This document shows positions 5,281-5,881 of a stretch of 64,000 bases of DNA, piece after piece. Source of the DNA: Methanocaldococcus indicus (lineage in GTDB: Archaea; AGJL01; Methanococci; Methanococcales; Methanocaldococcaceae); the NCBI RefSeq assembly GCF_049554935.1, contig NZ_CP186926.1, forward strand, positions 960,001 to 1,024,000, given 5' to 3'. The notes under the pieces were generated by a model that was not told the origin of the DNA, searched no databases, and saw only the letters and a list, made by a program, of their open reading frames with translations. Position numbers and translations under genes: made by a program. The stretch's first letter is position 1; each line of letters starts with the position of its first letter.

Positions 5281-5796
5281 ATGGATAATTATTTAGAAGA
5301 TGAGCTTATAATTAGAGGAATTGAGATAAATTATCTCTATGTATGCAAAACAAAGCTATTTTATTTTATAAAAGGTATAACAATGGAACAAGAGAGTGAT
5401 TTTGTTGATTTAGGAAAATTTTTGCATAGAAAAAGTTACTTTGGAGAAGAAAAAGAAGTTCAAATAGGTAGTATAAAGATAGATTTTATTAGAAATTCAA
5501 ATGGAATTATTGAGATACATGAAATTAAAAAAAGTAAATCAATGGAAAAAGCTCATATTATGCAAGCTCTTTACTATATTTACTATTTAAAAAAATTAGG
5601 TTTAGAATCAATAGCAGTAATAAATTATCCAAAACTTAAAGAAAAGAAGATAGTAGAATTAACTCAAAAAGATATTTTAGAGTTAGAAAAGGCTTTAAAT
5701 GAAATTAATAAAATAAAATCAATGAAAGAACCACCAAATCCAGAATATAAAAAAATTTGTAAGAATTGTGCATACTATGAGTTATGTTTTATATAA
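5281..5796 (+). CDS. cas4: Cas4 exonuclease
   Basis: YVCKTKL, KIDFI..EIHEIKKS, QALYY, CKNCAYYELC. Confidence 0.95.
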   Translation: MDNYLEDELIIRGIEINYLYVCKTKLFYFIKGITMEQESDFVDLGKFLHRKSYFGEEKEVQIGSIKIDFIRNSNGIIEIHEIKKSKSMEKAHIMQALYYIYYLKKLGLESIAVINYPKLKEKKIVELTQKDILELEKALNEINKIKSMKEPPNPEYKKICKNCAYYELCFI

Positions 5797-5881
5797 GTGA
5801 GATTATGAGTTTCCAGAGCAGCTACAACTCTCCCCTGGATATACACCCATGAGTTATGTTTTATATAAGTGAGATTATGAG
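5777..5881 (+). repeat. 33-bp direct repeat flanking a 39-bp unique insert (ectopic spacer-like integration)
   Basis: atgagttatgttttatataagtgagattatgag at 5777-5809 and 5849-5881; insert 5810-5848. Confidence 0.9.

Follow-up and report, generated by a model that had tools for sequence, protein, structure and literature searches.

A 72-bp duplication-insertion at the cas4-cas1 junction of Methanocaldococcus indicus as a probable natural off-target Cas1-Cas2 integration

The work of Nivala, Shipman and Church on 'neo-CRISPR' (CRISPR, short palindromic repeats that are clustered and regularly interspaced), published in 2018 in Nature Microbiology, reportedly relied on type I-E proteins over-expressed in Escherichia coli. 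The present analysis concerns a natural candidate for an event of this kind in an archaeon, namely a 72-bp unit at the junction of cas4 and cas1 in the type I-B system of Methanocaldococcus indicus, where a 33-bp stretch of ordinary chromosomal sequence is duplicated (5777-5809 and 5849-5881) around a 39-bp insert (5810-5848). The window analysed is a stretch of 64,000 nucleotides of the forward strand (NZ_CP186926.1, positions 960,001-1,024,000); coordinates without a prefix refer to this window, those prefixed C1 to the chromosome, and those prefixed C2 to a second contig. As summarised in papers that cite the neo-CRISPR study, off-target integration into the E. coli genome can spawn new arrays, and there is circumstantial evidence for off-target integration in two other species (10.1101/148544; PMC7054753; PMC11788318). 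The process is well documented in vitro and in over-producing E. coli, the natural evidence being only circumstantial according to one of these sources (10.1101/148544). Off-target integration is rarely seen in nature.

Like the neo-CRISPR units, its closest known counterparts, the unit described here has an insert of spacer size between copies of a duplicated, repeat-length stretch of ordinary genomic sequence and lies outside the arrays. It differs from them in being natural, in belonging to an archaeal type I-B system, in having an empty site in sister strains, and in lying at the start codon of cas1. A Cas1-family integrase, staggered cuts and a target duplication would also be shared with casposon integration, whereas casposons are kilobases long with duplications of ~14-15 bp, and the single cas1 match of this genome is the CRISPR cas1.

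Integration in vitro has been studied in Pyrococcus furiosus (Grainy et al., 2019; PMC6698737), a system with which the present one has in common an archaeal hyperthermophile host, a 30-bp repeat and, on the reading proposed below, recognition of the leader-repeat junction. In that work, which used plasmids, P. furiosus Cas1-Cas2 is described as carrying out full-site integration at off-target positions guided by the leader-repeat junction; the two strands are cut in pairs at a distance of 30-31 bp, and the sites favour repeat-like internal positions and, as the joined base, G or C (PMC6698737). The site at cas4-cas1 departs from those sites in that its first base is A, its duplicated segment is not repeat-like, and the duplication measures 33 bp. 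The same subtype as here operates in Haloarcula hispanica, where, according to Wang et al. (2016; PMC4872114), the duplication begins at the leader junction and extends to a measured distance, displaced repeat motifs giving duplications of 29, 31, 32 or 33 bp; those arrays were engineered and had a true leader, whereas a leader look-alike within a gene is found here. Ectopic acquisition in the type II-A systems of Streptococcus thermophilus and S. mutans, as far as it is described in PMC7999890 and PMC5338259, adds a spacer away from the leader-proximal repeat. Such events use a genuine internal repeat of the array, so that what they duplicate is a true repeat, while no CRISPR repeat is present at the junction considered here.

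The two copies of ATGAGTTATGTTTTATATAAGTGAGATTATGAG form a perfect direct repeat with a start-to-start spacing of 72 bp (33 + 39 bp), and the exact length of the duplication is 33 bp, because the bases adjoining the copies differ (t and c on the left, t and a on the right). Two matches to the 33-mer did not occur in any of 100 shuffles of the window by dinucleotides. The insert has a guanine-plus-cytosine (GC) content of 0.51, compared with 0.24 in the 33-bp copies and 0.28 in the genome, so that the duplication around a GC-richer insert, first described from the letters alone in what we call the sequence-only reading, is structured as that reading stated. Copy 1 (5777-5809, plus strand) contains the last 20 bases of cas4 with its stop codon, TAA at 5794-5796, followed by GTGAG at 5797-5801 and a decoy ATG at 5805-5807. 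Copy 2 (5849-5881, plus strand) has identical letters and provides the ribosome-binding region and the ATG at 5877-5879 with which cas1 starts; this start (MRKKSLT...) aligns with that of relatives.

Both genes are intact, as had been claimed, since each scores over its curated cut-off: cas4 (5281-5796, plus strand) reaches 72.7 bits against TIGR00372 (cut-off 65), and the type I-B cas1 (5877-6845, plus strand) reaches 449 bits against TIGR03641 (cut-off 304.1) as the sole cas1 match in the genome. The decoy ATG at 5805 had likewise been recognised beforehand, and it opens a 15-codon upstream frame, MSFQSSYNSPLDIHP (5805-5852, plus strand), which closes with TGA at 5850-5852, 24 nt before the cas1 ATG. 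The distance between the cas4 stop and cas1, which was 8 nt before the event, is now 80 nt.

The reality and the age of the event can be judged from four runs in which the region is present, none of them on record as RNA, X1 being possibly the source of the assembly itself and X2, X3 and X4 being metagenomic and coming from another study (P2). Among the unitigs of X1, the 33-mer has a depth of 60, a 99-nt unitig that covers the insert and both junctions (5780-5878) has a depth of 29.2, and the flanking unitigs have depths of 23.2 and 28.5. These values fit a true A-B-A structure (A, the 33-bp copy; B, the insert) at full frequency; they counter an assembly error, although they are not independent of the assembly. 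The contigs of X2, X3 and X4 differ from the window at 5 of 754, 2 of 592 and 3 of 350 letters, respectively (at least 99% identity), and each of them joins position 5776 to position 5849, skipping exactly 72 bp, with the 33 letters fitting either side. Since exactly this unit is skipped, the sister strains have the empty site, in which copy A runs directly into the cas1 codons. The insertion is recent and strain-specific, the near-identical strains having one copy of the 33-mer and no insert. Read support at full depth and an empty site in sister strains had both been put forward by the sequence-only reading as checks, and both came out as it expected; its statement that the unit is fixed in the chromosome is true of this strain or culture only, as the sister strains lack it.

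More distant relatives are ~80% identical; of the 11 loci fetched from other species, 10 had a readable junction, the exception being L008, where a contig ends at that point. Six of the ten readable species (L002, L003, L005, L010, L011 and L012) have a single copy at the junction.

In size the unit fits with the CRISPR arrays of the same genome, which comprises a 1.41-Mb chromosome and a 22-kb second contig. Its 12 CRISPR loci fall into two repeat families, both with 30-bp repeats, and share a near-identical leader end in all 12 cases (...TCTAAAATGTGCCTCCT then GTTAAAAT...). Lengths of 32-48 bp (median 37) are found among the 78 distinct spacers, whose median GC content is 0.30, and the repeat-spacer units measure 62-78 bp; the 72-bp unit is thus within the array range, as had been claimed, though the lower limit of that range had been put at 63 bp (63-78 bp). 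A length of 39 bp is ordinary for a spacer, being equalled or exceeded by 24 of the 78. A scan for perfect direct repeats at least 30 bp long with a period of 60-80, covering this one genome, found 5777-5881 to be the only such repeat outside arrays and leaders. The adaptation module is apparently intact: cas1, cas2 and cas4 all score over curated cut-offs (for cas2, at 6842-7105 on the minus strand and convergent with cas1, 52.4 bits against TIGR01573 with a cut-off of 24.5), and cas1 is single-copy genome-wide.

The duplication also begins directly behind a stretch that resembles a leader. The flank GAATTGTGCATACT (5763-5776, plus strand), which lies within the cas4 coding sequence and ends directly before the first base of the duplication, shares 10 of its 14 bases, and 8 of the last 10, with the leader end AAAATGTGCCTCCT in register; over longer spans the agreement is 13/20 and 15/25. 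On both strands of the genome, positions matching equally well have a frequency of 5.2e-4 for the 14-mer, 2.7e-4 for the 10-mer, 3.7e-4 for 20 positions and 9.1e-4 for 25. The six neighbouring registers match at 2-5 of 14 positions, and the other orientation at 6 or fewer. Corrected for the 14 registers and orientations examined, the probability of the leader mimic is p ~0.004-0.01.

A separate observation concerns the 10-mer TGTGCATACT within this flank (5767-5776), which has only three copies in the genome, the others being at 7276-7285 and at C1:941890 (minus strand). The copy at 7276-7285 is situated 1.5 kb away, inside the sole spacer of a hybrid array adjacent to the cas genes. Its presence in both the flank and that spacer may be a coincidence or a link; the flanks of the copies have no further similarity to one another.

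Taken as a whole, the unit is, in our judgement, likely to be a recent off-target integration by Cas1-Cas2, a role of the enzymes that we infer; the sequence-only reading had arrived at the same interpretation, and the evidence supports it. In a recent ancestor, the type I-B Cas1-Cas2, probably together with Cas4, would have inserted a spacer-sized foreign fragment outside the arrays. The complex would presumably have taken the leader-like end of cas4 for a leader-repeat junction, in an orientation that is itself conjectural. One fragment end would have been attached at 5776/5777, the second approximately one repeat length downstream on the opposite strand. Gap repair would then have duplicated the intervening 30-33 bp. 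Because the cas4 stop, the ribosome-binding region and the ATG of cas1 all fall inside the duplicated stretch, neither gene was lost, and the event was able to persist.

The insert (5810-5848, plus strand), presumed to be a spacer, has a single occurrence in the window, which is also the only one in the entire genome, the next-best hits being 13-nt chance matches in ordinary coding DNA, and it appears to be foreign on the strength of this absence from the host. No match to the 39-mer with up to three mismatches was found in 39 other genomes of the order. Exact-match scans, which would miss a diverged protospacer, returned nothing for the full 39-mer or its 23-mer core in the viral contigs of IMG/VR, and nothing for a 24-mer or 22-mer core in metagenome contigs or in genome contigs. 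Phage and plasmid records gave matches at chance level only (17 nt in Pseudomonas phages, E 7; 28 nt at 86% identity in Methylomonas, E 6), and Rfam has no family at the insert and no CRISPR-DR match at 5777-5881. The 80 canonical spacers of the genome have no protospacer in its own chromosome or plasmid, so that no protospacer-adjacent motif is derivable. As the contig scans detect exact matches only and even the canonical spacers lack self-protospacers, the failure to find the source of the insert is weak evidence either way. The search among viruses and plasmids that had been recommended found no source for the insert, which is not host DNA.

Several points weigh against an integration by Cas1-Cas2. 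The duplication of 33 bp is 2-3 bp longer than the 30-31 bp seen elsewhere in the genome. Chance identity at the ends can lengthen a duplication in appearance, and among 63 pairs of adjacent identical canonical repeats with different spacers, the apparent length is at least 33 in 6 (9.5%) and at least 32 in 17 (27%); four pairs with duplicated spacers were set aside from this count, and with them the value is at least 33 in 10 of 67. An origin of the 33 bp in chance end identity is accordingly possible, not likely, and the alternative is that the distance was measured less strictly on a target lacking repeat motifs. The duplicated segment does not resemble a repeat: the highest agreement with one is 11/30, a score equalled by 958 of 1,000 shuffles, in the comparison with the second repeat family 923 of 1,000 shuffles match its score, and in register on the plus strand it agrees with the repeat at 8 of 30 positions. 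Its first base is A, whereas G is favoured at integration sites in the P. furiosus study (PMC6698737). The GC content of the insert is high, only 3 of the 78 spacers reaching 0.51, and no protospacer was found for it in any collection searched.

The leader-like flank has its own counterweights. At the level of the 14-mer, some 1,464 positions in the genome resemble the leader to the same degree, of which only 5776/5777 was struck, and three of the other misplaced events in this genome (C1:400903, C1:401153 and C1:441345) have no leader mimic in register (1-6 of 14 positions). Because these events lack it, the mimic is not a general rule. The leader mimic can be no more than part of the story, the rest probably being survival, in that the duplication rebuilds the end of cas4 and the start of cas1. 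Finally, the genus has another process that gives target duplications of 21-72 bp, around hairpin elements, and an element of this sort occupies the junction itself in 4 of the 10 other species with a readable junction.

In those four species (L004, L006, L007 and L009), the cas4-cas1 junction holds an insert of 100-430 bp composed of hairpins rich in GC, AATAGGGCGAAGCCCTATGG being an example, and on either side of it lies an imperfect duplication of ~65-72 bp in which the 33 bp of the window are contained. The hairpin motif is dispersed: it occurs in 14 genomes out of 17 in the genus, the highest number being 19 copies in one genome; in the genome studied here, AATAGGGCGAAGCCCTATGG is absent at up to two mismatches. 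The elements examined (L004, L006, L007, L009 and L013-L024, plus three copies in this genome) are modular and ~65-430 bp long, with target duplications of ~21-72 bp that are often imperfect and usually lie at the 3' ends of genes, including the stop codon. Such long and variable duplications are unlike those of ordinary transposons. Rfam has no family for the hairpin elements of the sister species, and a literature search returned nothing relevant on those of this genus. An nhmmer profile built from 17 element copies found three copies in the genome: C1:1054122-1054216 and C1:499744-499841, which are old because their duplications have diverged, and C1:442461-442545, which has near-perfect duplications with exact blocks of 23 and 30 bp.

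The unit could, then, owe its form to a duplication-insertion independent of Cas1-Cas2, either through the process by which the hairpin elements spread or through template switching on an extrachromosomal donor, in which the new strand would copy a short stretch of the donor and then return 33 bp upstream. We regard such an origin as unlikely, while giving it some weight. The 33 bp lie inside the 21-72-bp range of the element duplications (a range shared, not specific), elements occupy this junction in four of the ten readable other species, and the insert is GC-rich like the elements and shares the 9-mer CCTGGATAT with the linker of some copies. That 9-mer is too common to be diagnostic, as it has 24 occurrences in the genome, and the element profile is blank at the site, even when a 250-bp target is searched with E values as high as 1000. 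Folding of the insert is weak (plus strand, -1.7 kcal/mol, a value reached by 81 of 200 shuffles; minus strand, -5.4 kcal/mol, reached by 3 of 200), unlike the perfect GC stems of the elements, and at least two of the three element copies in this genome are old. The genome contains no donor for the insert, and a process without Cas1-Cas2 predicts neither the spacer-like length, nor the repeat-like length of the duplication, nor a leader mimic in register. It is far less credible that the unit is a decayed remnant of an old hairpin-element insertion like those of the sister species. The junction is the same, and in L004 and L007 the start of the insert almost coincides with that seen here, just past the cas1 ATG; but the empty site in strains at least 99% identical makes the event far younger than the element-bearing species, which are ~80% identical, the copies are 100% identical here and diverged there, and the element profile does not detect the insert. 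The empty site and the blank profile were the grounds on which a decayed hairpin element was rejected. Errors of assembly or sequencing, or a tandem duplication by slippage, have a negligible place among the explanations. Short repeats are prone to mis-assembly, and X1, the sole run with the filled form, may be the source of the assembly; yet in X1 the depth of the 33-mer is twice that of the flanks, and the 99-nt unitig spans the insert with both junctions. Slippage cannot make 39 bp that are present nowhere else in the genome. Local duplication was discarded on the same ground, and the origin from nearby host DNA that the sequence-only reading had named as fatal to its case is contradicted by the uniqueness of the insert.

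Integration away from the regular position by Cas1-Cas2 would not be confined to the cas4-cas1 junction in this genome. Four other misplaced events were found in or beside arrays, all with 31-bp duplications and inserts of 34-38 bp. At C1:400903-401002, a 31-bp duplication of the leader end surrounds a 38-bp insert. At C1:401153-401251 and C1:441345-441440, the 31 duplicated bp consist of half a repeat together with spacer sequence, out of register in the array, around inserts of 37 and 34 bp, respectively. The fourth (7231-7328) belongs to an aberrant mini-array on the minus strand next to the cas genes (7164-7342), 1.4 kb from the cas4-cas1 unit. This mini-array consists of a canonical repeat (7164-7193; Rfam CRISPR-DR13, 36.9 bits against a gathering score of 37), a 37-bp segment (7194-7230) in which the leader's final 14 bp are present once more, on the side adjoining the canonical repeat, and two identical 31-bp hybrid repeats (7231-7261 and 7298-7328), each made of 17 bp of repeat and 14 unrelated bp, which enclose a 36-bp spacer (7262-7297) and lie directly behind the leader (from 7329). 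All of these parts are on the minus strand. The hybrid repeats suggest that the integrase starts at the leader and measures ~30-31 bp whatever sequence lies there, and the mini-array can be read as an integration that was anchored at the leader and measured ~31 bp across a half-repeat target, following a rearrangement at an earlier time. An attempt to interpret the spacer at 7262-7297 as Cas4-like fails past C-A-Y.

Two further features of the same locus were observed. Its leader contains a perfect 13-bp tandem, ATAATATAGCAAC x2 (7350-7375), of which other leaders have one copy. The stop codons of cas1 and cas2 overlap, and, in the direction of the cas-adjacent array, cas2 comes 58 nt downstream of that array's last repeat, so that cas2 could be co-transcribed with the precursor CRISPR RNA from the leader.

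With regard to function, the sequence-only reading had called the cas4-cas1 unit a newborn array with a non-CRISPR repeat. In form the description is apt, but the copies are unlike either repeat family, and judged by its sequence the unit would be an array in form only. Because the copies do not resemble a CRISPR repeat, processing of the unit by Cas6 is not expected. A bolder reading holds that the end of cas4 is a standing leader mimic, that the junction seeds a new array, and that the unit is growable, is transcribed within the cas operon and alters the expression of cas1; we consider this doubtful. The effect on cas1, which would operate through the 15-codon upstream frame or through a duplicated TATA-like TTTATATA box, is a similarly tentative proposal. 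A damping of adaptation through the uncoupling of cas1 from cas4, raised as a possibility by the sequence-only reading, would be equally conjectural. By its letters, the duplicated TTTATATA could be an archaeal TATA box before cas1.

Upstream of cas4, the type I-B cas operon includes Cas7b (1211-2116), Cas5b (2132-2908) and Cas3 (2908-5271), all on the plus strand. A canonical array of 12 repeats lies elsewhere in the window (44082-44859, minus strand), the leader beginning at 44860. Two adjacent spacers of this array, each 38 bp long, are identical and form a 100%-identical tandem of 68 bp (44150-44320); another spacer measures 48 bp, and the trailer repeat (44082-44111) is degenerate. The array at C1:441167 has a duplicated 36-bp spacer. 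Spacers at 44459-44498 and C1:935501-935538, in arrays of different repeat families, have 38 nt in common, suggesting either that one protospacer was captured independently by each or that the arrays exchanged it. The second contig, probably a plasmid, carries a 6-repeat array of the second repeat family (C2:10794-11139) with a leader of the same type.

The cas4-cas1 unit offers a natural case for which both states are available, filled in one strain and empty in near-identical environmental strains. It proposes a testable rule for landing sites, in which a leader look-alike is followed by a duplication of about one repeat length, and it defines a class of survivable sites, those gene junctions at which the duplication leaves both neighbours restored. 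Along with the four other misplaced events, it forms a small natural data set on the measuring rule of the integrase in type I-B systems of the Methanococcales, which are hard to study at the bench. The finding bears on the birth of new CRISPR arrays and on the cost of self-directed integration. If the junction does seed an array, the adaptation machinery would be rewriting its own control region, and the birth of an array would have been caught at the one-spacer stage.

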